DNA of 64,000 bases from a bacterium (lineage in GTDB: Bacteria > Patescibacteriota > Saccharimonadia > Saccharimonadales > DATKHC01): the NCBI GenBank assembly GCA_021781215.1, contig JAJXXC010000004.1, positions 66,975-130,974 of the forward strand, in the 5' to 3' direction. The position numbers and the translations under genes were made by a program. The first letter of the stretch is position 1, and each line of letters opens with the position of its first letter. The notes beneath the pieces were generated by a model. The model was not told where the DNA came from. It saw nothing but the letters and a program-made list of their open reading frames with translations, and did no database searches. Positions 4,012 through 36,094 of the stretch are shown one piece after another.

Positions 4012-5432
4012 ATACTTCCCTCTAAGGCGTTGGCAAAATTAATTAGATCAGCATCGTGCTTTTGGTCAGCCATGATTTGAATACCAATCGGCAAACTATT
4101 GCCTACGTTAGCCGGAATACTGATTGCGGGAATCCCAACCAGACTGGCCCCAACAGTTAAAACATCGGTTAAGTACATCTTCATACTGTCATCAACGTTT
4201 TCACCGATTGCAAATGCAACATCGGGTGCCGTAGGTGTAATAATAAAATCACATTTTTTAAATGCCTGGTTATATTCTTCAATTAATTTAGTTCTTAGTT
4301 TTTGAGCTTGATTATAATATGCGTCATAATAGCCACTACTTAGCACATAGGTGCCAAGCATAATCCGACGTTTGGCTTCCCTTCCGAAACCCAAACTTCT
4401 GGTTTTATTATATGACTCTTCTAAAGTAGTAGCTTTGGAATCTGAAAAACCATACCTAGTTCCATCATACCTGCTAAGATTACTGCTAATCTCTGCTGGA
4501 GCAATAATATAGTAACAAGCCAGAGAATACTCAATTAACGGAAAAGAGACCTCAATAACGTTAGCACCAAGTGATTTTAGGGTTTCAATAGTTTGTCCAA
4601 ATTTTGTTTGAACAGGTTTAGATATATCCGAACCTTCAAATTCTTTAACCACACCAATGGTTTTACCCTTTAGACTATATTTATCTGGGATAAAGTCGTA
4701 AGAATCTAATTTAATAGTAGTGCTGTCTAGTGTATCTTGACCAGCAATTACTTCCATTACAATAGCGGTATCTCTAACATTTTTAGTTATCGGACCGATT
4801 ACGTCAGTACTGCTTGCCATAGCAATAACTCCGTTTCGTGAGACCAAACCATAGGTTGGTTTAAATCCAACCGCGCCGCAAAAAGATGCTGGCAAACGAA
4901 TCGAACCACCAGTATCGGTGCCAAGAGCAAACGGAGCCATATCCAAAATGACAGCGGCAGCTGAACCACCGCTACTTCCACCTGGTACTAATTTTTTGTT
5001 ATGTGGGTTTTTAGTAACCATAAAATCACTATTTTCAGTGCTAGATCCATGGGCAAATGCATCCAAGTTAGCCTTAGCTACACAAATAGCCCCCTCGGCT
5101 TCTAGTCTCTCGATAACTGTTGCCTGATACGGAGCTACAAAACCTTTTAATATATTACTAGCGGCTGTTGTGGCTGACCCAAATGTAAGCATATTATCCT
5201 TAGCAATAAATGGAACGCCTGCCAGTCTGCCAACTTTTTCACCCTTAACAATTCTTGCATCAATCGACTTAGCTCTTTCGATAGCCCTGTCTTTAATTAC
5301 CGAAATAATTGCATCATAGTCACTCTTGTCCTCAATCGTTGCTAAGGATTTCTCTACCAAAGATAGCGCAGTAGTTTTACCTGAGTTCACCTCATTAGCA
5401 ATAAGATCTATATCTTTCCATTGACTCATCAT
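4008..5432 (-). CDS. gatA: Glu-tRNA(Gln) amidotransferase subunit A
   Basis: 474 aa carrying the amidase signature GGSSGGSAAAV and GTDTGGSIRLPA. Confidence 0.95.
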   Translation of the reverse strand: MMSQWKDIDLIANEVNSGKTTALSLVEKSLATIEDKSDYDAIISVIKDRAIERAKSIDARIVKGEKVGRLAGVPFIAKDNMLTFGSATTAASNILKGFVAPYQATVIERLEAEGAICVAKANLDAFAHGSSTENSDFMVTKNPHNKKLVPGGSSGGSAAAVILDMAPFALGTDTGGSIRLPASFCGAVGFKPTYGLVSRNGVIAMASSTDVIGPITKNVRDTAIVMEVIAGQDTLDSTTIKLDSYDFIPDKYSLKGKTIGVVKEFEGSDISKPVQTKFGQTIETLKSLGANVIEVSFPLIEYSLACYYIIAPAEISSNLSRYDGTRYGFSDSKATTLEESYNKTRSLGFGREAKRRIMLGTYVLSSGYYDAYYNQAQKLRTKLIEEYNQAFKKCDFIITPTAPDVAFAIGENVDDSMKMYLTDVLTVGASLVGIPAISIPANVGNSLPIGIQIMADQKHDADLINFANALEGSI

Positions 5433-10730: not shown

Positions 10731-11653
10731 TAGACTAAGTTAGCCTTTCCCGCGGAATTAAACATATCAATTTTTGACTCAACTACAGTCTGAACAGCAG
10801 TAATAACTTTATCCATTAATTTAATAACCGCATATTCGGAAGGATTGTCTCTCAAGACTTCTTCTAAAGTTTTTCGATAAGCCACTCTCATATCAGAATT
10901 AATATTAACCTTTGACACTCCTATCTTAACTGCCTCTTCAAAATAATGACCCGGCGTGCCACTTCCACCATGTAAGGAAATATTACAATCTATTGATTCT
11001 CTAATTTGTTTTAATAGTTCGAGATCGAGCTGTTTGGGGACTGGATATTGACCGTGCAAATTTCCGATAGCTGCTGCAAAAGTATCAATTCCAGATGCTT
11101 GAACAAATTGCTGCGCACCGTCAGGAGTTGAAAAAGTTTTTTTGATTTCCTCATAATTAATAACTTCTGTGTGTAAATTAGAACTTCCACCAAAATAATG
11201 CGGCTCGCTTTCAACCAATGCGCCGGTAAATTTAGCATATTCAACGACTTTCTTTGTATCAGCAATTATCTGATCCTCCGTAGCATCATGCTGTGCCTGA
11301 CTGATGTCAATGTGAATGAACTCAAATCCGGCATCTATTCCAGCCTTCGCTGCCTCCACGCTAGGTGAATGATCCAAGTTAATATACATCTCTACGCCAT
11401 ACTTGCGTTTATAATTTGTCACCATATCCCTAACATTATCAAGTCCAATTGAGTCAACTTCACCCTGACTAACCTCAATTAATACTGGGGCTTTCTTTTT
11501 AACGGCAGCTTGCAGTACGGCCCTAAGAGTTTCTTGATTATCCATGTTAAAAGCACCAAATGCAAAATGCTCATTTCTAGCTCTCGTCATGGCTTGACGA
11601 GCTAGATTGCAGTTGTTTCTGATTTCATAAATTGTAAGCGACATTACTATCAA
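10730..11653 (-). CDS. fba: class II fructose-bisphosphate aldolase
   Basis: 307 aa with the LDHS, HIDIS and SLHGGSG motifs. Confidence 0.9.
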   Translation of the reverse strand: MIVMSLTIYEIRNNCNLARQAMTRARNEHFAFGAFNMDNQETLRAVLQAAVKKKAPVLIEVSQGEVDSIGLDNVRDMVTNYKRKYGVEMYINLDHSPSVEAAKAGIDAGFEFIHIDISQAQHDATEDQIIADTKKVVEYAKFTGALVESEPHYFGGSSNLHTEVINYEEIKKTFSTPDGAQQFVQASGIDTFAAAIGNLHGQYPVPKQLDLELLKQIRESIDCNISLHGGSGTPGHYFEEAVKIGVSKVNINSDMRVAYRKTLEEVLRDNPSEYAVIKLMDKVITAVQTVVESKIDMFNSAGKANLV

Positions 11654-13504: not shown

Positions 13505-14133
13505 GCCACTACCTCCAGTGACTTACATAAGGCATCATAGGCTTGCAACGGATTCTTAGATTTATGTATATAGCCGCCAACATTTAAAACATCGACTTTA
13601 TTGTCAGATAATATCTTTGCATTAGAAAGATTAATTCCACCATCCCAGCCAACTTCAATATTTGAATTCAACTCCTTAACCATACTGGCTTTTGACACCA
13701 ATTCCATATCGGCATGTCCACCAAAAAATCCTAAATTGCCTGAAAAAATTAATACATGATCAAGAACATCTCTAAACTGTTTAAGTAAGCTGACATTAGT
13801 CTGTTGCAACACTGCAATGCCTAGTCTAATCCCATTACTCTTAACAACATCCGCAATTTCACTGATATTCATTTCTGATTCATAGTGGACAATGATTAGG
13901 TGCGGTTTCAAACTCACTAACTGCTTAATAATTGGGCCAGGTGTCTCGTACATCACATGGATATCGGTCGTGACTTTGGGCAGCCAGATTTTCTTAACAT
14001 CTAAAAGTTTTGGGGCAAATATATCATCGGCGATATCTAAATGTAGCCGTTTCGCAAACTGCGAAACTACAGCTATCTGATTATTGAATTGAGCAAGACT
14101 CGTGGCTGTTATTGTCGGGCAAATTATTGACAT
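13501..14133 (-). CDS. ribulose-phosphate 3-epimerase-like TIM-barrel protein
   Basis: 210 aa, divergent from canonical Rpe (HLDIADDIFAP, WDGGIN). Position between tkt and rpiB supports the call. Confidence 0.6.
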   Translation of the reverse strand: MSIICPTITATSLAQFNNQIAVVSQFAKRLHLDIADDIFAPKLLDVKKIWLPKVTTDIHVMYETPGPIIKQLVSLKPHLIIVHYESEMNISEIADVVKSNGIRLGIAVLQQTNVSLLKQFRDVLDHVLIFSGNLGFFGGHADMELVSKASMVKELNSNIEVGWDGGINLSNAKILSDNKVDVLNVGGYIHKSKNPLQAYDALCKSLEVVA

Positions 14134-24275: not shown

Positions 24276-25394
24276 CTATTTAGGACTAGCTATTTTCTCC
24301 CACGGGAGTTGGCTTTTACCGAAATGACCATACGCTGAAGTATCCGAATATATCGGTTTTCTCAAATCCAATTGTTTAATTATTCCACTTACAGACGGAT
24401 CTATAAGATCATCAACAAATTTATATATCGACTCAAGTGATGTTAGCTCAGTTCCAAAAGTATCAATGTTTAACATTACAGGGCTCTTAGCACCTATATA
24501 GTAAGCAAGTCCTACTTCGACTTTTGACGCTAATTTTGAAGCAACTATATTTTTAGCAATATATCTAGCGGCATAAGCACCAGACCGATCAACTTTGCTA
24601 GGATCCTTACCACTAAAGGCACCACCTCCAACCCGAGCAAAGCCTCCATAACTATCAACTACAATCTTTCTACCAGTTAACCCACAATCAGAACTCGGGC
24701 CAGGAATATTCCAAATGCCAGTTCCATTTACAATCACCCGGTCTCTGTTAACGCTATAATTAAACTCAGCTAATATTGGGCTAATAATTTTGGTATATAC
24801 GTCCTCAAATATTTGTTCTGAAGTTACCTCTTCGCTATGAGGAACCGCAATAGTTACATGAGACACAAATTTCGGTTTATCGTCCTCGTAAGCAATGACT
24901 ACCTGAGCCTTACCATCAGGACGCAAGAATGACAACTCGCCAGACTCTCTTACTGAATCTATCTTTTTAGTTAATCTGTGTGCAATTGTTATTGGAGTTG
25001 GCATTAGTTCCTTAGTCTCATCACAAGCGAAGCCAAACATCATTCCCTGATCACCTGCTCCTTCAGCGTCAACTCCGACTGCAATTTCAGGAGACTGTTG
25101 ATGGATAAAATTATCGAGCTTTGATTCGTAGCTAAAACCCCAGTCATTATTTATATAACCGAGTTGTTTAATTTTATTTCTGGCAATTTCTTCAAAATTA
25201 ATTTTAGCAGTAGTGGTAACCTCACCCGCTAAAACAATGTGGTTGTCTGCAACCAGAGCCTCGACGGCAACTCTTCCGTTTGGATCTTCGGCTAGAACTG
25301 CATCAAGGATGGCATCGCTAATCCCATCACAAACCTTATCCGGATGACCGGCACAAACAGATTCACTGGCGAAATATGATATATTTTTTGACAT
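24276..25394 (-). CDS. metK: S-adenosylmethionine synthetase
   Basis: 372 aa with GHPDK, GAGDQGMMFG and GGGAFSGKDPSKVDRS motifs. Confidence 0.95.
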   Translation of the reverse strand: MSKNISYFASESVCAGHPDKVCDGISDAILDAVLAEDPNGRVAVEALVADNHIVLAGEVTTTAKINFEEIARNKIKQLGYINNDWGFSYESKLDNFIHQQSPEIAVGVDAEGAGDQGMMFGFACDETKELMPTPITIAHRLTKKIDSVRESGELSFLRPDGKAQVVIAYEDDKPKFVSHVTIAVPHSEEVTSEQIFEDVYTKIISPILAEFNYSVNRDRVIVNGTGIWNIPGPSSDCGLTGRKIVVDSYGGFARVGGGAFSGKDPSKVDRSGAYAARYIAKNIVASKLASKVEVGLAYYIGAKSPVMLNIDTFGTELTSLESIYKFVDDLIDPSVSGIIKQLDLRKPIYSDTSAYGHFGKSQLPWEKIASPK

Positions 25395-25395
25395 T

Positions 25396-25556
25396 AAAAA
25401 ATCCTTTCTATGATTAGTTTTTTAGCTAACTAACGAGAAAGGACTGCAATTCAATGCAAAATATCTTCCCCATTAGTTAGACTAATTGGGCTAGATTTAG
25501 CACCTTACACTAATTGCAGGTTGCTGGCGTGTCATCGAGCTAGGTCTCTATTCGCA
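25396..25556 (-). promoter_or_regulatory. SAM riboswitch (SAM-I clan, reduced P2) with a terminator/SD-sequestering hairpin, in the metK leader
   Basis: The minus strand reads GCGAAUAGAG..GAUGACACGCCAGCAACC..AAGGUGCUAAAUC..CCCAAUUAGUCUAACUAAUGGG..GAAGAUAUUUUGC. This contains the conserved GCAACC/GGUGCUAA core, a P4 hairpin, and P1 closure. It is followed by the stem UCCUUUCU(25443-25436)/AGAAAGGA(25409-25402), U6, then the metK ATG. Confidence 0.65.
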
Positions 25557-25695
25557 CTCTTTATATTTAAATTTTAAATTAAACGTACGTGTCATTAATT
25601 AGTGACAATACGGTTATTCTAGCATTAACATTTTAATAATTCCACTTTTTATATTTCTTAATAAAATATAACAAGATATAATCAGTAGTTACTGT

Positions 25696-25769
25696 TGGGA
25701 GTTGGCCAAGCGGTAAGGCACTGGGTTCTGGTCCCAGGATCGGGGGTTCGAATCCCTCACTCCCAGCCA
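25696..25769 (+). tRNA. tRNA-Gln (anticodon CUG), CCA encoded
   Basis: Manual cloverleaf: acceptor TGGGAGT/ACTCCCA (U1:A72), D arm GCCA-AGCGGTA-AGGC, anticodon arm CTGGG-TTCTGGT-CCCAG, T arm GGGGG-TTCGAAT-CCCTC, discriminator G plus CCA. Total 74 nt. Confidence 0.9.
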
Positions 25770-27334
25770 AGAGATAATTTTTCGTCTTTCAACAAGGTAT
25801 AGAATGGCTCTGCTAAGGAGTAATCAACTATTTTTATTCCATCAAAATGTAGGTTCAAAAACACATTGCGTATAATTATGTCTCGTTGAACCATTGTTCC
25901 ATTGTTGAACCTTTTAGCCATAGTTTGAACCAGTGTATTAAACTCTTCTGTCGTGAAAGCTTGTATTGACACTTTTTCTAGCTTTAGATTGTTATCTTCA
26001 ATCTTAGCTGTTTGGCTTGTTATTGTTCGCATATTTTCAGATATAGAGATCTGTATTTCTTCTTTCATTTTTGTATCTCTTATTACCAGTAATTGCTTAC
26101 CAAAATCTTTATTGTCGGTTCTCAACCTTGTTATATAGGCTTGCAAGCTTATATTCTCACCCCTAAGAGCTTGTTTGCGACTAGCTGATAACTCCTTATT
26201 TTCAGCCAAATATTTCTTATATACCTTTCCTGTGAGTTTAGACGAGACTTCTTTAAGAACTTTACTGGCTGCATCAGACACCACGATTGCCCTAACGTCT
26301 TTGGGCTTACGAGGGCAGTCAGTATTTTTGCATTTTGTATAAACATAATACTTGCCGCTTCTACTCTTAGAGCGATAGACAATCAGTGGCCGTTTATCGT
26401 GGCAAGTCTCACAAAACAAGATGTCTCTAAACGGCAAGAAATACTCTAACTTTTTGCCACTCCCACGTTTTCGCTTATAGTTTACCTCTTGAACTTTTGC
26501 ATAAGTAGCTTCATCAGTTAATGGCACAAAATCAGGTAGTAGTTCACGCAAATCTGCCGTACCGTCTGCCTGAACTGCTATGCCGTAATAAAAACTGCTA
26601 TGTTTGCCACTAAACATTCTAGTCAAGTCATTGGTTTTTATTATTCTAATCTTTCGTTCAGCTTTTATGATTTGAGAAAAGTTGTTTGTATTTAGATATT
26701 CAATAATTTCGTCGTGTTTAGCTCCTCTGGCTCTCATTTGCCATGCTTCTTGTATAAGCCCAAAGTTGTTGTTTTCTGTATCTGGTTTGTAGTAACCATT
26801 TTCTTGAATATATCCTAATCTTGGGTAACCTCCTAAACCGCCTTCTCCAAACTTTTTTCTTACCCCTCTTGTAGCTTTTTGCGATAATTCATCAGAATAA
26901 TGAGTTGCCAGCACAAACATTAAACCTAACATCATTCGGCCAGCAGGGTCATTCGAAAATGGCAATGAGAAAAATCTTAAGTCTTTCAACTGACCATTGT
27001 TTATCATATCTAAGATAATGCTGGCTTCAACCATATTACGAGCCAGTCGGTCAGGATGCCATGAAATAATTCCGTCAATCTCACCGCTTTTAACGCGTTT
27101 AATAAGATTTCTGAACTCTGGTCGTTTTTTGGCTATTTTTGCCGATTTACGTTCTTCGATTGGCTTACCGACTAACTTTAAGCAATCTCGCTTAACCAAT
27201 AACATACAGTCGTCTATTTGGTCGTTTATCGATCTGTATTGTCGCTCCAATCCTTCAGTACTCTTACGAGCGTATATAACGTATTTATAGGCTGTTTGGG
27301 GCTGACTTGTTGTGTTGTTAATGTCAGGGTTCAT
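25757..27334 (-). CDS. large serine recombinase (integrase)
   Basis: 525 aa with an N-terminal resolvase catalytic region (YARKSTEGLERQ), a recombinase domain, a Zn-ribbon (CETCHDK...CKNTDCP), and a C-terminal coiled coil. The last 4 codons and the TGA stop lie within the tRNA-Gln 3' end. Confidence 0.85.
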   Translation of the reverse strand: MNPDINNTTSQPQTAYKYVIYARKSTEGLERQYRSINDQIDDCMLLVKRDCLKLVGKPIEERKSAKIAKKRPEFRNLIKRVKSGEIDGIISWHPDRLARNMVEASIILDMINNGQLKDLRFFSLPFSNDPAGRMMLGLMFVLATHYSDELSQKATRGVRKKFGEGGLGGYPRLGYIQENGYYKPDTENNNFGLIQEAWQMRARGAKHDEIIEYLNTNNFSQIIKAERKIRIIKTNDLTRMFSGKHSSFYYGIAVQADGTADLRELLPDFVPLTDEATYAKVQEVNYKRKRGSGKKLEYFLPFRDILFCETCHDKRPLIVYRSKSRSGKYYVYTKCKNTDCPRKPKDVRAIVVSDAASKVLKEVSSKLTGKVYKKYLAENKELSASRKQALRGENISLQAYITRLRTDNKDFGKQLLVIRDTKMKEEIQISISENMRTITSQTAKIEDNNLKLEKVSIQAFTTEEFNTLVQTMAKRFNNGTMVQRDIIIRNVFLNLHFDGIKIVDYSLAEPFYTLLKDEKLSLGWE

Positions 27335-27494
27335 TTATTGCTACTAGTATTACTATACTGCTTTATTTTAGCAAATTTCTAAAGGTATACACATACTTTT
27401 GAACTCTTGCAATTGAACTACTTAGCTTACAAGTTTAGTTTGTCTAGCATTAGCAATACTCTATAAGGTAGATCAGGTGTAAAATTAAATACAT

Positions 27495-29738
27495 ATGAGC
27501 AATTTTAAGAAAAACTCTGATGAACCGATTGTCTCACTCAAAGAAGATAGATTTGGAAGAGAAAACTTTTCTCACACCCTAGCGGATGCGTTGATAAAAG
27601 TGCCAAATAATCAGTCCATGACGGTTGGCTTATATGGTACCTGGGGAAGCGGTAAAACATCAATAATCAACATTGCCAAAGAATATCTAAATAGTAAGTA
27701 CGAAAATGATGTAATTATTGTTGAGTTCAATCCCTGGATTTTCTCATCAGTAGAAAGTCTGCATATGGCTTTTTTTAATTCATTAGCTGTAAAACTTCAC
27801 AAAAAATTAAAAACAAGGGGTCAAGAAGTAGGTGAAGCTATACAAAAATATGGTCAACTTACAGACCCTATTGGTAGTGCAGTAGGAATGTTACAGCCAC
27901 AAGTAAAATCTTTAGCAAAAATAATCGGTCAGGTCATTAGCGTATTTGGCTCTGCCTTAAATAAAACGGAAGATATTAACGCTATCAGAGTTAAGGTCAA
28001 TACAATTCTGGCTTCGTCTGGCAAAAGAGTTGTCGTAGTAATAGATGATATAGATAGGCTAGACAAAGATGAAGTGCATCAGGTGTTTAAGCTAGTCAAA
28101 AACGTAGCCCACTTCAAAAACGTTTCTTATTTACTATCATTTGACCGTGTTGTGGTAGCCGAAGCCTTATCAGAAAGGTATCCAAATAGTCCAAGTTTTG
28201 GCGGTAGCTTTATCGATAAAATAGTCCAGCTACCTCTTTTCGTGCCTAGCGTTGACCAGTTATTACTAAATAGATTTCTTACAGACGACCTTGATAGAAT
28301 CATCTCACAAAACAAACTAGATATAACAGAGAAAGATATGTCTCGCTTCCAGTCTGTTTTCTTCGCTCGAGATGCAGACAAGTTATTTGATACTCCCAGA
28401 AAGGTGGTACGTTATCTAAACACTGTTGACTTCTCTACAGAAAGTCTAGGTATTGAAACTTGCTTTACTGATACTGCCTTAATTGATTTAATTCGTAACT
28501 TCTACCCTGACCTTTATGAAAGTATTGCTTCCAATAAACTATTACTTTTGAATGGGATGCATGGCGATAGAGAAATCGAGAACGAGAAAGCTGCAGCCAG
28601 AAAGGCTGTATTTGGAACTGACAAGCCGTTTGCTATGGAAGCCATGCTTATTCGTGAATTATTCCCTAGTTTTGAATGGGCTTTAGGTGGGTCATCATAT
28701 TCTGGTGATTTTCTAAAAATCTGGGAAGACGAAAAAAGAGTTTGCTCAGAGAAATACTTTAATCGCTTTTTTGCTTATGACATACCAGTAGGTGATGTGG
28801 CAGACGCTAAAATAGATAGCTTCTTATTAACTCTTAGCTCACCAAAAACAACTATACCTATAGCCGAAAAAGCTTTTAAGGATATGAGTAAAAATAGCGA
28901 TCAGGCGTTATTGCTGTCTAAACTAAGAAGAAAAGAAGACGATCTCACTGAGACTGTCAGTAAAAAGCTTTCTCAGGTTATGGTTAATGTTGGCTTTAGC
29001 TTATCGAGACAAAGACAGGCTTTGGTGGGTGATATGTATTCACCATATGTACAATCGGCTATTCTAGCGATAAGACTAACTCGCAACATACAAAATCCAT
29101 ATAAGACACTAGAAAAGTACATAAAAAGCAGCCCAATTGATTATGCTGCTCAACTTTTTAATTGGATTAGAGTAAACACCGAGAAAGACAAAACTACTCA
29201 AGAAGACTTTGAGCCGTTAATTACACTTGATGAACTCGACAATTTAGGCAAGCTGATTGCTAATAGAATTAAGACTTATACCAATACGAAATATATCCAA
29301 ACTGACTTAACGCAAGATGTACCTTTCTTGATGTGGATTTGGCAAAAGTGGGGTAATAAGTCCGACATAAACAACTATTTTGCTAAAAGCTTTAAGAACA
29401 ATCCTGAAAGAGCTGTAGACTTTTTGATGACTTATGTAGGTGATGCTTGGGAGATAGGTACAGGCATAAAAACTCGATCTGAGTTCAGGAGAGAAGCCTA
29501 TGATCAAGTAGCCAAAGTTGTTGACCCTGAAGTTTTTATTAAACCGTTAATGACGCTATACGGTAAGGAAGTAAACGAGGGTGGGTTCAGCGATAGTCGG
29601 TTTGATAAAACTAAAGATTACAAGTTTCAGGTAGCTCAACAGTTCCTGTACATTAACCGTAATAAAGATAAAGTGGATAGTAATAAAGCAGCAGGAACTG
29701 AAGCTATCGAAGGTGAGGTCGTAGATACCGCAATATAA
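27495..29738 (+). CDS. KAP-family P-loop NTPase
   Basis: 747 aa with Walker A GLYGTWGSGKTS, Walker B/KAP motif VVVVIDDIDRLDKDE, and a long helical C-terminal half. Confidence 0.8.
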   Translation: MSNFKKNSDEPIVSLKEDRFGRENFSHTLADALIKVPNNQSMTVGLYGTWGSGKTSIINIAKEYLNSKYENDVIIVEFNPWIFSSVESLHMAFFNSLAVKLHKKLKTRGQEVGEAIQKYGQLTDPIGSAVGMLQPQVKSLAKIIGQVISVFGSALNKTEDINAIRVKVNTILASSGKRVVVVIDDIDRLDKDEVHQVFKLVKNVAHFKNVSYLLSFDRVVVAEALSERYPNSPSFGGSFIDKIVQLPLFVPSVDQLLLNRFLTDDLDRIISQNKLDITEKDMSRFQSVFFARDADKLFDTPRKVVRYLNTVDFSTESLGIETCFTDTALIDLIRNFYPDLYESIASNKLLLLNGMHGDREIENEKAAARKAVFGTDKPFAMEAMLIRELFPSFEWALGGSSYSGDFLKIWEDEKRVCSEKYFNRFFAYDIPVGDVADAKIDSFLLTLSSPKTTIPIAEKAFKDMSKNSDQALLLSKLRRKEDDLTETVSKKLSQVMVNVGFSLSRQRQALVGDMYSPYVQSAILAIRLTRNIQNPYKTLEKYIKSSPIDYAAQLFNWIRVNTEKDKTTQEDFEPLITLDELDNLGKLIANRIKTYTNTKYIQTDLTQDVPFLMWIWQKWGNKSDINNYFAKSFKNNPERAVDFLMTYVGDAWEIGTGIKTRSEFRREAYDQVAKVVDPEVFIKPLMTLYGKEVNEGGFSDSRFDKTKDYKFQVAQQFLYINRNKDKVDSNKAAGTEAIEGEVVDTAI

Positions 29739-29743
29739 GATAT

Positions 29744-30195
29744 TTAATCTGTCGAGGTATCAATCTCAAGCTCAATAGCTTCTGTTTCTTGATAGGTTTT
29801 TGCTTTAGTAACTATTAGCTTCTTAACAAACCTAAACTCTTTAGCTCTCTGTGCGTTACGCTTTTGTCTATCTTGACGGTCTTGCCACCACATGGCTACA
29901 TTTATATCTCCCCAATGTAGTGCTCAATTATGCTCGTAGCTCGGTTTGTAATTGTGTCTTGAGTGGCGGTTGTTTTGTCTCGAAACTCCACATTTTTTCA
30001 TCTCAGTATAAAAGACCGAGCGAGGCACACCAGACTTCACGCAACCCAATGATACGCCGACAGTACATCTACTTCATCACGACTTATCTTTGAGAGCTTG
30101 TCAGTAATGTGCATGCCTTGCAACACCTGAGCCTGTGGGTTGAACTTCTAAACTAGCTCGGCTGTCTTCTCCTCGTAATACTTGCCTTTCTTCAT
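29744..30195 (-). pseudogene. decayed paralog of the HTH gene at 31219..31653
   Basis: Manual translation gives fragments in three frames, interrupted by in-frame stops. MKKGKYYEEKTAELV* is followed by ..KISRDEVDVLSAYHWVA*, then GVPRSVFYTEMKK.., then ..MWWQDRQDRQKRNAQRAKEFRFVKKLIVTKAKTYQETEAIELE. These are colinear with GVSTSTYYKELAS...SRWWIDRQDKLERSAQRAKEYRLIKRLIITKTYQETQSVKLE. DNA similarity is visible between 29770-29890 and 31225-31345. Confidence 0.6.
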
Positions 30196-30282
30196 ATATA
30201 CATTTTACCCCACGTTGAGGTGTAAGATAGGCAGTTAGTATAGTCACGTTATGGACTAGGCTAGGCAACCTTGGATTATATA

Positions 30283-30879
30283 TCAGGGAACTAGCCACTC
30301 GCCAGTGCTTTGCAACAAACCACTTTGGGTTTGGAATTGTATCTTAGCGGCCTTGACGGCATCAGGAACTTGAAATACTACACATCCAGTAGTGCTTTCG
30401 CCGGGAGCTAATGTGTACTGTCCACTATTGAAATTAGTACATTCAGACACACTACTAAAGTCAGCTGTATAACTTTGGTTGTCTGTTCCTATTAGGGTGA
30501 CGTCACTGTTAGCGTCATCATTAAACGCAGCTGTGCCATTATTAACAATTTTTACATCTACTGCGACAAACCTTTTCCCAGCATCAGCAGTAGTATACTG
30601 GTCAACTCCGCTTGCAGGGTCAATCACCTGATTTAGCGTTACTGCTAAGCCTTTGCTTCCACCGACATCTACCGTTGAGCCAACGTGAGCCGTTGAATTT
30701 AATGGACTAGAACTAGGTTTATTGCTACTTGAACTCGTACCAGCCTTGCTTGCAGTTGTAGTTACGGTGGTTTTGTTACCACCAGCAGAAATTGAACCAA
30801 TAATTATTAAGGCCACTATCACACCAATTATACTCGACACTTTATGACGTCTAAAAAAACTTTTTTCCTTACTGCTCAT
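30283..30879 (-). CDS. DUF4352-like secreted/membrane-anchored Ig-fold protein
   Basis: 198 aa with an N-terminal TM helix, an S/T-rich linker, and a C-terminal domain (KRFVAVDVKIVNNG...TLAPGESTTGCVVFQVP) resembling DUF4352. GC content is visibly higher than in the neighbours. Confidence 0.65.
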   Translation of the reverse strand: MSSKEKSFFRRHKVSSIIGVIVALIIIGSISAGGNKTTVTTTASKAGTSSSSNKPSSSPLNSTAHVGSTVDVGGSKGLAVTLNQVIDPASGVDQYTTADAGKRFVAVDVKIVNNGTAAFNDDANSDVTLIGTDNQSYTADFSSVSECTNFNSGQYTLAPGESTTGCVVFQVPDAVKAAKIQFQTQSGLLQSTGEWLVP

Positions 30880-30985
30880 TTGTAAACTCCTAGCTTAACT
30901 TATATCTGTAAAGATAGCACATTAAATAACAAAAATAAACAACTAGTTTATGTAACTATCTGTTTATAATTCTTACCCTAAGTGT

Positions 30986-31213
30986 ATGAGCAATGCACAA
31001 GAACAAAAGTTGATGAAAGCCTTTGGTAAACGAATTTCTGAGGTTCGTAAAAGTCGTGGTGTTACACAACAACAGCTAGCTGAACATATAAATATGAGTG
31101 TTGTTGCTATCGCCTATATTGAAACTGGCAAGCGTTGGGCACGACTTGGAACGTTGAATAAGATAGCCAAAAGCCTGAAAGTAACTGTAGCTAACTTATT
31201 TGAAGGAATATAA
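30986..31213 (+). CDS. XRE-family helix-turn-helix regulator
   Basis: 75 aa with a typical Cro/CI HTH (RGVTQQQLAEHINMSVVAIAYIETGKR). Confidence 0.8.
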   Translation: MSNAQEQKLMKAFGKRISEVRKSRGVTQQQLAEHINMSVVAIAYIETGKRWARLGTLNKIAKSLKVTVANLFEGI

Positions 31214-31218
31214 ATTCC

Positions 31219-31653
31219 CTATTTTGTAAACATGTCTGTTTCAAGCTTAACGCTTTGTGTTTCTTGATAAGTTTTAGTGATGATAAGCCGTTTGATGAGC
31301 CGATATTCTTTGGCTCTCTGTGCACTTCTTTCAAGTTTGTCTTGACGATCAATCCACCAACGAGATGTTTGAACATCGTGTTGCTTTTCAATAGCATCCT
31401 TAACAACTAAGTTGGCAAAGATTGTGGTTTCATTCTGGGCAATAGTCATTTTGTCCGAAAATCTTTTATTACTAGCAAGTTCCTTGTAGTAAGTTGAAGT
31501 ACTGACACCAGATAGGACACAGGCACCACTAACGTTCATACCTTTCCTAAAACAATCAACTAGTTCTCGGACAACCACTGGCGTTATTGCTTTGGGTCGT
31601 CCAACGCTTTTACTAGGATTGTTTATCGCGAGTTGTTGTGACTGATTTATCAT
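31219..31653 (-). CDS. HTH protein resembling a phage terminase small subunit or excisionase-type DNA-binding protein
   Basis: 144 aa with an N-terminal GRPKAITP..HTH (GACVLSGVSTSTYYK) and a C-terminal SRWWIDRQ motif, as in small-terminase-like HTH proteins. Function is not proven. Confidence 0.5.
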   Translation of the reverse strand: MINQSQQLAINNPSKSVGRPKAITPVVVRELVDCFRKGMNVSGACVLSGVSTSTYYKELASNKRFSDKMTIAQNETTIFANLVVKDAIEKQHDVQTSRWWIDRQDKLERSAQRAKEYRLIKRLIITKTYQETQSVKLETDMFTK

Positions 31654-31706
31654 AGTCTTATTGTAACAAGATTCGCTGGTATGATGTAGTATTGGCTAAA
31701 GCTATA

Positions 31707-33290
31707 CTACCTAGCAGGCTGATCATTGACTTCTTTTTCAATGATCAGCATCTTGTTAAAGCTTCTCTCGACACTCTCAATAAATGTGTCTATTACTATG
31801 GGGAAGTCATCTTGTTTAACTACAGCACCGTCGTATATTTGTTCCATTATTATAGTTCTATTTTGGTTAGGAAAAGATATTTTTGTATATTCAATTTTTT
31901 TCTTGCGTGAAGCAGTATAATATGGTTTATTTGCCATCGCCACTCCAAAGCCAAAGTCCATTATTATCTTTGCCATCTTGACACTGTGTATCCTGAGAGT
32001 TCTATCATCGGGCTTATCCAAAGCCATAACCTCTACCTTTATAGCCTCAAGCTTTGATTTGTATTCTCTATTCAGAAGCAAGGTAAGTAGAGTGCCGGGT
32101 TTTGGGAACTCTTTTTCATCAAAGCTAATGTCTTTTCCATAAAGTAAAACCCCGTCCGACCAAATAATAAACCGGTCTTTTTTATAAATTTCTGAGAACA
32201 GATCAGCCTCATTAATAAAGGTTGCATCTACCGGGTATTCTCCAAAAGTTTTTGAATAGCCATTAGTAATTATATAAAAGTTTATATCTGATATATGAGC
32301 CTTAAACTCATTTCTAGCAGCACTTCCCACTAGATAGATCGATACCACAATATTGCCTAGTTCTTTTTCTGCAAACTCAACCATTGGATAGACCATAAGG
32401 TCAAGGGGCGACTTAATTTTGTCCTTACTCGCCTTATTCTCAATGTTCATAGAACCCAAAAACTCAGTATACTTAACCATAATTTTGGCTAACTCAATTG
32501 GATTAGTTTCAATTTTGAAATGCTTAATCAGTGCATCGGCCATCCTTTCGACGGTATATTCAATTTCAGTTATAGTTTTTTGCTGTTTTTTAACTAACTC
32601 TGATCTCAATTTATCATAGGCATCCTTACCTAGCTTCTCCATTCTAGTCTTACCATCCTCTGTTAGTTGCTGAGTAGGTGTTGGTTGAAGCATAATTTTA
32701 GACATTCTTATCTTTTGATAATCACTATTGAGAGCTAGTCTACTTGCAAAGTGATGATGCTGTGTTCTTCTTTTTAGTACAACACCTATTGGGTTATCAG
32801 ATTGTTCCAGCTTCTTTAGCAGTTCGTATACACCTATTTCCCCTAACTTGTCTTTATTCTTTTTGAGAAAACTAGCAAGCCTCATATTTTCTGGTTCAGA
32901 ATAAGCTTTCGGGAAAGGAGGCTCGGCAAACATAAGGTCTAGTAGTCTTAATAATTTGTCTTTGAACTGATGAACGAGATCAAGGAATATGCCATTGTAG
33001 TAGTTAATTAAGTCTTCTGGTTCATGAGTCTTGTGTTTAGTAGTAAGTTTTTCGTTGACGTTTGCAATTAGTTCGGATGTTAGTTTAAGTTCATTCAAAA
33101 CCCTTTCAATTTCACCAGCATATATATACCGATTCTCAAAGACCTTACGCTCAAAGGTTATTCTTTCAATAGCAGCATAGCCCGGTTCATCCATCTCTTT
33201 CTGAAGGTTGAGCATAAGTAAGCTCTGCCTTAACTTGGAGAACTCAGTATCTGGTACTCTTCTACTATTGACTGATACTTCTTCACCCAT
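31707..33290 (-). CDS. nucleotidyltransferase-fold protein with a long helical N-terminal region (possible HEPN-NTase-HEPN architecture)
   Basis: 527 aa with a minimal-NTase signature at aa 319-340, YLVGSAARNEFKAHISDINFYI (GS-x11-D-I-N). Rx4H motifs occur at aa 174-180 (RRTQHHH) and aa 430-435 (RTLRIH). Domain calls rest on motifs only. Confidence 0.55.
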   Translation of the reverse strand: MGEEVSVNSRRVPDTEFSKLRQSLLMLNLQKEMDEPGYAAIERITFERKVFENRYIYAGEIERVLNELKLTSELIANVNEKLTTKHKTHEPEDLINYYNGIFLDLVHQFKDKLLRLLDLMFAEPPFPKAYSEPENMRLASFLKKNKDKLGEIGVYELLKKLEQSDNPIGVVLKRRTQHHHFASRLALNSDYQKIRMSKIMLQPTPTQQLTEDGKTRMEKLGKDAYDKLRSELVKKQQKTITEIEYTVERMADALIKHFKIETNPIELAKIMVKYTEFLGSMNIENKASKDKIKSPLDLMVYPMVEFAEKELGNIVVSIYLVGSAARNEFKAHISDINFYIITNGYSKTFGEYPVDATFINEADLFSEIYKKDRFIIWSDGVLLYGKDISFDEKEFPKPGTLLTLLLNREYKSKLEAIKVEVMALDKPDDRTLRIHSVKMAKIIMDFGFGVAMANKPYYTASRKKKIEYTKISFPNQNRTIIMEQIYDGAVVKQDDFPIVIDTFIESVERSFNKMLIIEKEVNDQPAR

Positions 33291-33305
33291 AAACTTAGCT
33301 CTTTA

Positions 33306-33647
33306 TTATTTCTGTTTCTTTAACACAAGCCTTATTTTGTTTGGCTTTTTCTTCACTAGCCTGATAATGGCTTTATCTTGACTAAAGACGTTTTGCATTG
33401 CCCTGCTTATTACCACATCTAGGTTCAATCTTGCATTGGTTACTGATATTCTTTCAATATATAGGTTGTTACGCCCTTTGTCTGTGGCTAAACTTAGTGT
33501 CATTACTGAGCCATCATCTAATACAATCTCACCATTGTTACCGCTAGCGTCACCAATTTCAATCTCACTTAAGACAGATAATAAATCAGTGATACTCTTT
33601 AGCATTGTTTTTTGTTTACTGGACACTAATGTTTTGTTATAACTCAT
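33306..33647 (-). CDS. hypothetical 113-aa protein, first gene of the NTase operon
   Basis: ORF lies 15 nt upstream of the 527-aa gene on the same strand and has a lysine-rich C-terminus. No recognisable motif. Confidence 0.45.
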   Translation of the reverse strand: MSYNKTLVSSKQKTMLKSITDLLSVLSEIEIGDASGNNGEIVLDDGSVMTLSLATDKGRNNLYIERISVTNARLNLDVVISRAMQNVFSQDKAIIRLVKKKPNKIRLVLKKQK

Positions 33648-33805
33648 AGATTACCCCTCGTTGATACCTATATTTTATAATACTTGCGTTATTGCCGCTA
33701 ATTAAGTCATTTAGCATTTGCCCAAACTTATGCAAGCCAGCCATAACATCAGCACATGTGATATGCTCGGCATTACTAGGTACTGGTTCAAATTGAGTTT
33801 CATTT

Positions 33806-33822
33806 TCCCAGCCACAAGAGAT
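33806..33822 (+). repeat. att-like copy of the tRNA-Gln 3' terminus (candidate attR)
   Basis: TCCCAGCCAcaAGAGAT compared with TCCCAGCCAAGAGAT at 25761-25775. Confidence 0.45.
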
Positions 33823-34045
33823 TCGATCTTAAGCCAAATATCTAGTCACGACATCGTAAAACGTCCTCGACCGTCACCCACAGCAATCATGGATTCGAAC
33901 GTAAGTCAAACATGTAGTATGGTAAATGTATTTTTAGATCTAGTTACTCCGCAGAAATTTTACTTGTTAAAAATTATACGGAAGTTCAATTCCCTAGACT
34001 CCAAAATTTAATATCTATACTATTGGAGTAAACTAGGAGAATAAT

Positions 34046-36008: not shown

Positions 36009-36094
36009 GGCCAGAAGAGCCTTCACTCTCACCATTGATTCTGAGTCAATAGTAAGGGTCAAAGTTCGAAAATCCGACCTTGGTCTCAGCCAAG
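36009..36094 (+). repeat. intergenic mosaic repeat, copy B; tRNA-Gln-like relic
   Basis: Contains a 5-bp stem with a 7-nt loop, ATTGA-TTCTGAG-TCAAT (36034-36050), with CTG at the anticodon position. Downstream come GTTCGAAAATCC (T-loop-like) and TCTCAGCCAAG (36084-36094), compared with the tRNA TCCCAGCCAAG. The 5' edge GGCCAGA is nearly complementary to the 3' edge TCTCAGCC. Confidence 0.6.

Follow-up and report, generated by a model that had tools for sequence, protein, structure and literature searches.

The stretch of DNA analysed here (the window; 64,000 nt of contig JAJXXC010000004.1, from a bacterium of the Saccharimonadales) has a single tRNA gene called by ARAGORN, a tRNA-Gln(CTG), and beside it, on the opposite strand, the gene for a 525-residue large serine recombinase (LSR). 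The two genes overlap by 13 nt: the complement of nucleotides 25757-25769 supplies the TGA stop of the LSR, its E, W and G codons and the final base of its L codon, so that the gene closes with GGC TGG GAG TGA after the last base of CTT. The LSR thus ends inside the tRNA, as had been claimed in the original prediction, a model's reading of this stretch from its letters. The repeat described there is also present, as TCCCAGCCAAGAGAT at 25761-25775 and TCCCAGCCAcaAGAGAT at 33806-33822, with the AGAGAT portion shifted by 2 nt between the two copies. The sequences described below lead us to read the segment between the copies as, most probably, a mobile element of 8,045 bp that was inserted at the tRNA by its own LSR and whose attachment site, attP, lies inside the LSR gene itself.

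An empty version of the site (attB) was found on contig L015 (SRR5080639), where the last 29 nt of the tRNA gene, CGGGGGTTCGAATCCCTCACTCCCAGCCA, are followed by CAAGAGATTCGATC... and the sequence runs on to the Nudix gene. L015 matches the window without a mismatch over 29 + 984 nt (984/984 from 33815 onward). Near-identical strains thus differ in having or lacking the insertion, which fits recent gain or loss. All features by which a tRNA-integrating island is recognised were found: an intact tRNA, a displaced copy of its 3′ end, an integrase beside the tRNA and an empty site. The tRNA-Gln(CTG) stays intact after integration and forms the tRNA-side arm of both attB and attL. Two short-read contigs break at this tRNA, L006 ending 40 nt into the gene and L015 beginning 29 nt before the junction; such breaks are the pattern that would be expected if occupied and empty sites coexist in a sample.

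The natural attP form was represented by contigs L001 and L002. Here the LSR P0007, which is 82% identical to the window LSR, is 580 residues long, ends ..SLGWENVTQFEPIPASIEHTTFADVMNGLRKFGQLLNDLASGNNPSIIKYRYQQGVIYEL, and is directly followed by homologues of the open reading frames (ORFs) at 33306-33647 (65% identity) and 31219-31653 (49%), which in the window sit at the other extremity of the island. In blastn, one alignment (2,009 nt, 80% identity) spans the reconstructed junction 33814|25770, and the attP of L001, ..AACATTT TCCCAGCCA AGAGATAATTTTTCG.., is made up of the sequences found in the window as the left arm of attR, the core and the right arm of attL. A crossover in TCCCAGCCA of the window element gives the junction 33814|25770 (the 60-mer around it is GGTTCAAATTGAGTTTCATTTTCCCAGCCAAGAGATAATTTTTCGTCTTTCAACAAGG) and a 580-residue ORF ending ..SLGWENETQFEPVPSNAEHITCADVMAGLHKFGQMLNDLISGNNASIIKYRYQRGVIYEL*, with 55 extra codons. 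Because of these attB and attP sequences, the island was placed at 25770-33814 with the crossover inside TCCCAGCCA. The two sequences are independent of each other, and the exact 9-nt repeat is the recombination core rather than a chance match.

The predicted attL/attR pair is borne out by the empty attB and the natural attP, and the stop codon is indeed supplied by the chromosomal tRNA side, the ORF being longer in the excised form. The junction peptide of about 35 codons (..LAGKMKLN..GKC*) that had been translated by hand was rejected, because its frame is inconsistent with the natural attP and attB and with the TCCCAGCCA crossover from which the prediction itself had started; it needs an extra CA and a crossover in AGAGAT, giving 556 residues, while the true extension has 55 codons and is in a different frame. 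Neither the attP of L001 nor the attB of L015 has the arrangement that such a crossover would give. Of the repeat, only the 8-9-nt core is general, since three related integrated elements (L010, L110 and L113) lack AGAGAT in their chromosomal arms. In L010 the shared core is TTGGCTGGG, of which CCCAGCCA, the final 8 nt of the tRNA, is common with the window element. Orthologues beside tRNA-Gln in other genomes, a check set beforehand, were found at L007, L008, L010, L112 and L071.

The window protein is a large serine recombinase, with a resolvase domain, an invariant catalytic serine and a four-cysteine zinc ribbon with a coiled coil. Pfam Resolvase (PF00239) matched residues 19-165 with an E-value of 1e-22, the PDB matches were to DNA invertase, and Y21, R23 and S25 were invariant across 43 and across 74 aligned homologues, as were the four cysteines, C308, C311, C335 and C340; PF13408 was present in homologues. 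PF07508 was not called by Pfam in the window LSR, and precomputed matches to it exist in many homologues at 36-62% identity. In an AlphaFold2 (AF2) model of P0007, a folded helix/strand domain (175-290) lies between the catalytic and four-cysteine regions, followed by strands (306-348), a long helical hairpin (384-454) and a closing set of strands (492-507). The model is confident to about residue 516, catalytic domain included, and by this model the 525-residue integrated form appears to be a complete canonical LSR minus an extension.

The 55-codon extension lies detached at the far end of the island. It is 77% identical in amino acids to the natural tail of P0007, and its reading frame has 0 stops, compared with 4-11 in the other two frames. 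Pairwise Nei-Gojobori dN/dS values over the 55 codons were 0.20, 0.37 and 0.07, with many synonymous changes. Intact tail remnants occur at the far junction of four other integrated elements. One (L010) is integrated at tRNA-Gln(TTG); two (L110 and L113) carry the core TGGCTGGG, with no tRNA called there by ARAGORN; and the fourth (L017) is at tRNA-Asp, with an LSR that is 50% identical and the tail ETQIEPHETANILPIADVMEKLRRFRQLLSDIACGRHEDMIKYK. The Gln, Asp and Ser subfamilies have LSRs that are only 45-50% identical and cores that differ, and yet all three keep a helix with the pattern ADVM..L+.F.QLL.D in the tail. Judged by this pattern of substitution, the tail is conserved as a protein sequence. 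HMMER matches of the tail to two low-complexity repeat proteins were judged spurious. Another HMMER match, P0124, is a 66-residue protein in which a tail remnant is preceded by the flank-derived MKHNFGLYGW; a detached tail therefore gains a start codon at some attR sites.

A survey of the family, with one genome per species, recovered 80 loci. Most are from Patescibacteria (among them Saccharibacteria, Microgenomates lineages, Gracilibacteria, Peribacteria and Uhrbacteria), and several are labelled as Gammaproteobacteria or Pseudomonadales metagenome-assembled genomes, or as other phyla. At 60 of the 80 loci, the LSR ORF shares its end with the antisense 3′ end of a tRNA, and 13 isotypes are represented (Leu 17, Pro 16, Lys 6, Gly 4, Asp 3, Glu 3, Gln 2, Ser 2, Met 2, His 2, Ile 1, Val 1 and Ala 1); the remaining 20 are mostly cut by contig ends or are distant relatives. 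Among the 120 homologues listed, the C-termini are mostly antisense-tRNA peptides (..EIRTPAPG, ..ERTRTFDL, ..YRIRTDDL, ..SRGAGN), and long tails not derived from a tRNA are seen in P0070, P0084, P0112 and P0102. The C-terminal additions read from antisense tRNA in integrated copies range from 1 to 33 residues.

Far junctions in the family were located by two criteria, 7 or more nt matching the end of the tRNA and a sequence motif at position +23 (see below); an earlier search by exact repeats of at least 9 nt had been noisy, with T-loop and other chance matches, and was replaced. Joining the LSR to the far junction gave an attP-form extension of 43-57 residues in 18 of 21 candidate junctions, from eight tRNA types, compared with 6% of random joins (binomial P ~1e-19). 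The reconstructed tails start x-x-T-x-[FLI]-E-[PLH], contain an amphipathic segment, e.g., I-A-D-W-L, and end Y-x-[YLF]. At many loci, including L001, L096 and L097, the ATG of the next gene lies within the last tail codons (TATGAGTTATAA and similar). This next gene encodes 80-114 residues, is homologous across the Gln, Asp and Ser subfamilies, and is often followed by a gene for a helix-turn-helix (HTH) protein matching terminase small subunits (phrog_4102, 4e-10 in the window and 1e-15 in L097). In two subfamilies with repeats of 22-28 nt, joining at the exact repeat keeps the stop inside the repeat and leaves the C-terminus unchanged; for one such element (L039), the motif-based search gave a second candidate junction, leading to a 43-residue tail. 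These comparisons indicate that the placement of attP within the ORF is a property of the whole recombinase family and not of the window locus alone. It is apparently an undescribed, large family of tRNA-targeting integrases, mostly from Patescibacteria.

A protein-based metagenome scan gave 2 loci only, a DNA-pattern scan of metagenomes with the core and the beginning of the tail found 0 matches, and IMG/VR held distant relatives only, at no more than 29% identity over long matches. The IMG/VR and metagenome scans therefore gave no evidence of these elements being catalogued as viruses. Several loci of the survey had features of their own. At L097:10001-15178, an uninterrupted tail-bearing LSR (P0112, 554 residues) and its coupled downstream genes lie inside a larger island, the outer boundary of which is a second LSR (510 residues) abutting tRNA-Pro(CGG), making a nested or tandem pair. 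In L010, the antisense tRNA-Gln 3′ end, TTGGCTGGGGC, occurs twice more, at 2966 and 3738, upstream of the far junction at 4255, and these copies suggest that earlier insertions at this tRNA had formed a tandem array. In L055 (~11330-11422), an element with a 28-nt repeat, a stop interrupts the LSR frame (..LSVI*REPF..) immediately ahead of the C-terminal motif, which makes this a decaying integrated copy.

The attachment sites share an arrangement of motifs, the positions of which were counted from the complement of the tRNA base A76. In six att pairs that had been found without use of the motif (three for Gln and one each for Asp, Leu and Pro), the antisense T-loop, YYGAAC, lies at +18 in the tRNA arm and a second YYGAAC lies at +23 in the P arm. 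The +23 motif is likewise present in the three natural attP forms L001, L096 and L097, bringing the total to 9 of 9 cases. In the window, the P-arm TTGAAC sits 5 bp further out than the motif of the tRNA arm. For LI integrase of Listeria innocua, of the A118 family, the motif of the zinc-ribbon domain (ZD) occupies half-site positions 16-24 in attP and 11-19 in attB, a shift of 5 bp (Rutherford et al. 2013, PMC3783163). The difference between +18 in attB and +23 in attP matches this published shift.

The attB of the window also has a dyad: TCGAATC, 5 nt, TGGC[TG]GGA, 7 nt and GATTCGA. Because of its symmetry the centre was taken to be TG, which is CA at tRNA positions 71-72, and by analogy CA at 25764-25765 is predicted to be the central dinucleotide of the crossover. 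Counted from TG, the half-site positions of the motif are 14-19 for attB and 19-24 for attP, an arrangement close to that of LI. We propose, again by analogy, that the ZD reads the T-loop (YYGAAC) and that the specificity for one tRNA comes from the acceptor-stem side; if so, specificity through the acceptor stem only would account for the spread of the family over 13 isotypes. The tails begin ..F/L-E-P/L because those codons are the P-arm motif. The chromosomal (B′) arms of other elements are asymmetric, with TCGAA at the same spacing in L113 and not in L010 or L110. A search of the P′ arm, within the LSR coding sequence, for a symmetric ZD-like motif gave only TTCAAC, which is 5 bp too far out.

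The features of the island and its junctions are collected in Table 1. Three genes make up its conserved backbone: the LSR gene, the small ORF and the HTH gene resembling terminase small subunits. Homologues of this HTH gene are also present in L010 and L110. The small, 113-residue gene has its ATG within the tail ORF, in an 11-nt overlap with the end of that frame, as in L097 and L096; in the attP form its translation is probably coupled to that of the LSR. No function could be assigned to it by PHROG, Pfam or PADLOC. The gene for the 527-residue protein has no counterpart on L001, and a KAP NTPase similar to the PifA-like NTPase of the window was seen in L110. Pfam found no recombinase in the island besides the LSR, and neither Pfam nor PHROG gave a recognisable recombination directionality factor. 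Scans for promoters and terminators around attR and the LSR gave counts near the shuffled expectation. Across the Gln and Asp subfamilies the elements are ~3.7-8 kb in size. Size, tRNA target, terS-like gene and defence cargo resemble those of phage satellites or tycheposon-like elements, a resemblance that we take only as a lead.

Table 1. Features of the integrated element and its attachment sites in the window.
Feature	Position	Strand	Basis or remark
tRNA-Gln (anticodon CTG), encoded CCA	25696-25769	+	ARAGORN; Rfam tRNA, 61 bits
tRNA T-loop GTTCGA (antisense TCGAAC), +18 from complement of A76; proposed ZD motif of attB	25746..25751	+	sequence
LSR, integrated truncated form, 525 aa	25757..27334	-	Pfam Resolvase
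attL core TCCCAGCCA, final 9 nt of tRNA	25761..25769	n/a	identical in attB (L015), attP (L001), attL and attR
Integrated island, 8,045 bp	25770..33814	n/a	empty-site contig L015 joins 25769 straight to 33815
attL element-side arm (P′ arm of attP), within LSR coding sequence (..LLKDEKLSL)	25770..25800	n/a	collinear with L001 attP form
KAP-family P-loop NTPase, PifA-like; candidate abortive-infection defence	27495..29738	+	Pfam KAP_NTPase 5e-50; PADLOC PifA 1e-82
DUF4352 protein	30283..30879	-	Pfam 3e-18; weak PHROG match to Sie-like family
Cro/C1-type HTH regulator	30986..31213	+	Pfam HTH_3 5e-13
Terminase-small-subunit-like HTH protein	31219..31653	-	phrog_4102 4e-10; 49% identity to second gene past LSR in L001
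527-aa protein, weak nucleotidyltransferase match	31707..33290	-	Pfam NTP_transf_2 1e-3, 19.9 bits, below cut-off of 21
Conserved 113-aa gene, function unassigned by profiles	33306..33647	-	65% identity to gene overlapping LSR stop in L001
Detached LSR 3′ end, 55 codons (NETQFEP..VIYEL) + stop	33637..33805	-	junction translation
T-loop-like TTGAAC, P arm of attP/attR, +23 from core start; encodes F-E-P of tail	33786..33791	-	sequence
attR core TCCCAGCCA, displaced copy of tRNA 3′ end	33806..33814	n/a	same sequence in attB and attP
Chromosomal B′ arm of attB/attR	33815..33835	n/a	GATTCGA at 33820-33826 mirrors tRNA T-loop across core

The flanks of the island gave two further observations. Directly to the left of tRNA-Gln, a SAM riboswitch (RF00162, 56 bits; 25458-25569, minus strand) lies upstream of metK (24276-25394, minus strand), an ordinary arrangement. 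To the right, at 36040-36092 on the minus strand, there is a degenerate att-like sequence, GCTTGGCTGAGACCAAGGTCGGATTTTCGAAC..CTTACTATTGAC, with YYGAAC at +23, which is homologous to a stretch past the LSR P0003 in L113 (7660-7720), where no tRNA is called. The segment 33815-36092, which holds the Nudix gene and three small genes, may represent what is left of an older element that had inserted in tandem.

Taken together, we consider it likely, at roughly 85%, that the window holds an 8,045-bp element inserted by its own LSR into the last 9 nt of tRNA-Gln(CTG), with attP inside the LSR gene. The reading builds on the four observed forms of the attachment site, the natural 580-residue orthologue, the conserved tail and the overlap of LSR and tRNA genes across the family. 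In the excised form, attP would lie 55 codons upstream of the natural stop of the LSR gene, which would then encode 580 residues, and the stop would be overlapped by 11 nt by the small gene, followed by the terminase-small-subunit-like HTH gene. Integration would cut the LSR gene at the core, so that the integrated copy ends G-W-E at the antisense-tRNA stop, while the 55-codon tail and the downstream genes would be left 8 kb away at attR, parted from the LSR promoter and start codon. Excision would rejoin them. The 525-residue enzyme retains all canonical domains in the model and would presumably stay catalytically competent. Integration would then act as a genetic switch that changes the isoform of the recombinase and turns off the coupled genes. 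A more speculative extension, which we hold to be possible but not probable, is that directionality is encoded by the structure of the gene instead of by a separate factor, the tail, made from the excised element only, biasing the enzyme towards integration or else governing how stable it is or how it partners with the coupled downstream proteins, and the tail-less form, made from the integrated element only, being excision-competent or bidirectional, with the ZD reading the T-loop and the acceptor stem providing specificity.

Several points weigh against this reading or parts of it. The exact 580-residue protein of the window element had no match by look-up in the protein collection, and no attP junction of the exact element was found, so that the attP evidence comes from a relative with 80% identity. 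The survey of far junctions is not independent for the +23 motif, which was itself a search criterion, and both the predicted crossover dinucleotide and the proposed ZD recognition of the T-loop draw on analogy. A SHOCT-domain gene lies directly upstream of the LSR in L001, L007, L010, L110, L112 and L113; the window element has none at 27335-27494, its divergent PifA-like gene starting 160 bp upstream of the LSR, and it may be a reduced copy. As for the tail, AF2 gave it a pLDDT of 25-58 in P0007, with one helix at 542-560 and low confidence overall, and a full HMMER scan with the tail as query found no homologue outside the recombinase family. Its first ~9 codons can be explained by attP DNA (the core and the T-loop mimic), and its last 3, the final Y-x-Y/L, by the overlapping ATG of the next gene.

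These last points, together with the poor alignment of the middle of the tail among distant subfamilies, would also be expected if the tail had no function as a protein. The frame would then be kept by the P arm of attP, by the overlap with the next gene and by the passage of ribosomes for coupling, and integration would remove a dispensable appendage. We think this unlikely: the low dN/dS, 0.07-0.37, applies across the whole tail with its many synonymous changes, the helix is kept among the Gln, Asp and Ser subfamilies, and coupling alone would fix neither the sequence nor the length of 43-57 residues observed at 18 of 21 junctions.

A different objection concerns the 525-residue form, which could be inactive, as in the suicidal integrases of the archaeal SSV type. 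Integration would be a dead end, and excision would depend on another element, either incoming or co-resident, to provide the 580-residue enzyme in trans. An att site within the recombinase gene is indeed found in SSV1 (PMC8371274), the antisense-tRNA additions of 1-33 residues to integrated copies are arbitrary, a second LSR is found in tandem or nested elements (L097, L010), and Pfam and PHROG gave no recognisable directionality factor for the island. In SSV1, however, the catalytic domain is separated by integration, whereas here the cut removes only an extension and keeps the catalytic, putative recombinase, zinc-ribbon and coiled-coil parts. The empty site with 0 mismatches, moreover, points to a polymorphic insertion and fits recent gain or loss, and we rate the dead-end scheme as improbable. 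Finally, that the overlap of ORF and tRNA and the repeat of 9-15 nt are coincidences in an ordinary chromosome is scarcely conceivable: although a 9-nt repeat by itself is not significant in 64 kb, and CCCAGCCA also occurs at 13644 and 62833 of the window, the idea is refuted by the empty attB and the natural attP, and the conservation of the tail and the recurrence of the overlap at 60 of 80 loci also speak against it.

If insertion by a self-splitting LSR is the correct reading, the family would change its own C-terminus and disconnect a coupled operon at every integration, and the self-splitting of a bacterial serine recombinase would be an independent origin of the archaeal arrangement. 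The elements may constitute a major class of mobile elements in Patescibacteria, some with defence-type cargo. For the insertion of large DNA cargo, serine integrases are the principal tools, and the control of their directionality is an active structural question. The system should be of high interest to the fields of mobile DNA and integrase engineering; it is experimentally tractable, since both isoforms and all four short att sites are within reach of synthesis, and recognition of the T-loop by the ZD, if true, would provide retargetable tRNA-gene integrases.

The original prediction had called tRNA targeting unusual for an LSR, and the literature agrees. In Mageeney et al. 2020 (PMC7192596), the use of t(m)RNA genes by serine integrases is described as unreported to the authors' knowledge, and 14 of 297 serine-integrase islands predicted by TIGER use one; against that background, the present family targets tRNA genes systematically. 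Among the tycheposons of Prochlorococcus, LSRs occur in 27 of 937 elements (bioRxiv 10.1101/2020.12.28.424599). Both sets are like the present elements in being small and tRNA-integrated, some with terS-like genes and defence cargo and a minority with an LSR; they differ in their hosts and in the dominance of tyrosine recombinases, and the searched passages of these sources do not mention an attP in an ORF, a split C-terminus or a T-loop motif. In a literature search of incomplete coverage, nothing relevant was found on serine recombinases of Patescibacteria or Saccharibacteria or on an attP within a serine integrase gene. With the well-studied LSRs (phiC31, Bxb1, A118/LI and SPbeta SprA) the window protein shares the YxRxS serine, the resolvase domain, a putative recombinase domain, the four-cysteine zinc ribbon and the coiled coil, and the sites share a short identity between attP and attB, an int gene adjoining attP and a motif 5 bp further out in attP (PMC3783163). 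Those enzymes target protein-coding genes, whereas here the targets are tRNA 3′ ends, attP lies inside the integrase ORF, the C-terminus is changed and the proposed ZD motif is the T-loop.

Partial parallels exist outside the serine recombinases. Work attributed to Broussard et al. in 2013 reportedly described the mycobacteriophages BPs, Brujita and Charlie, in which attP lies inside the repressor gene and integration at a tRNA by a tyrosine integrase removes a degradation tag. That integration-dependent immunity would be alike in having attP in a coding sequence, a protein shortened at its C-terminus and a switch, but there the repressor is cut and here the recombinase. For Tn916, Celli and Trieu-Cuot are said to have found in 1998 that genes are joined to a promoter at the far end only after circularisation. 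This resembles the coupling by circularisation proposed here; in Tn916, however, it is reportedly transcriptional only, with no ORF spanning the joint, and depends on a tyrosine recombinase without tRNA specificity. The closest parallel is offered by the SSV-type integrases (SSV1, pTN3 and pT26-2), which, as here, have attP in the integrase gene, a tRNA target and an intact gene only when excised (PMC8371274). That a recombinase gene is split by an att site of its own has been described as a trait of such archaeal tyrosine integrases exclusively (PMC8371274). There the split sets essential parts of the protein apart, whereas here a bacterial serine recombinase loses only an extension of 43-57 residues. 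By this comparison, the window LSR is best regarded as an analogue, and not a member, of the self-splitting SSV-type integrases.

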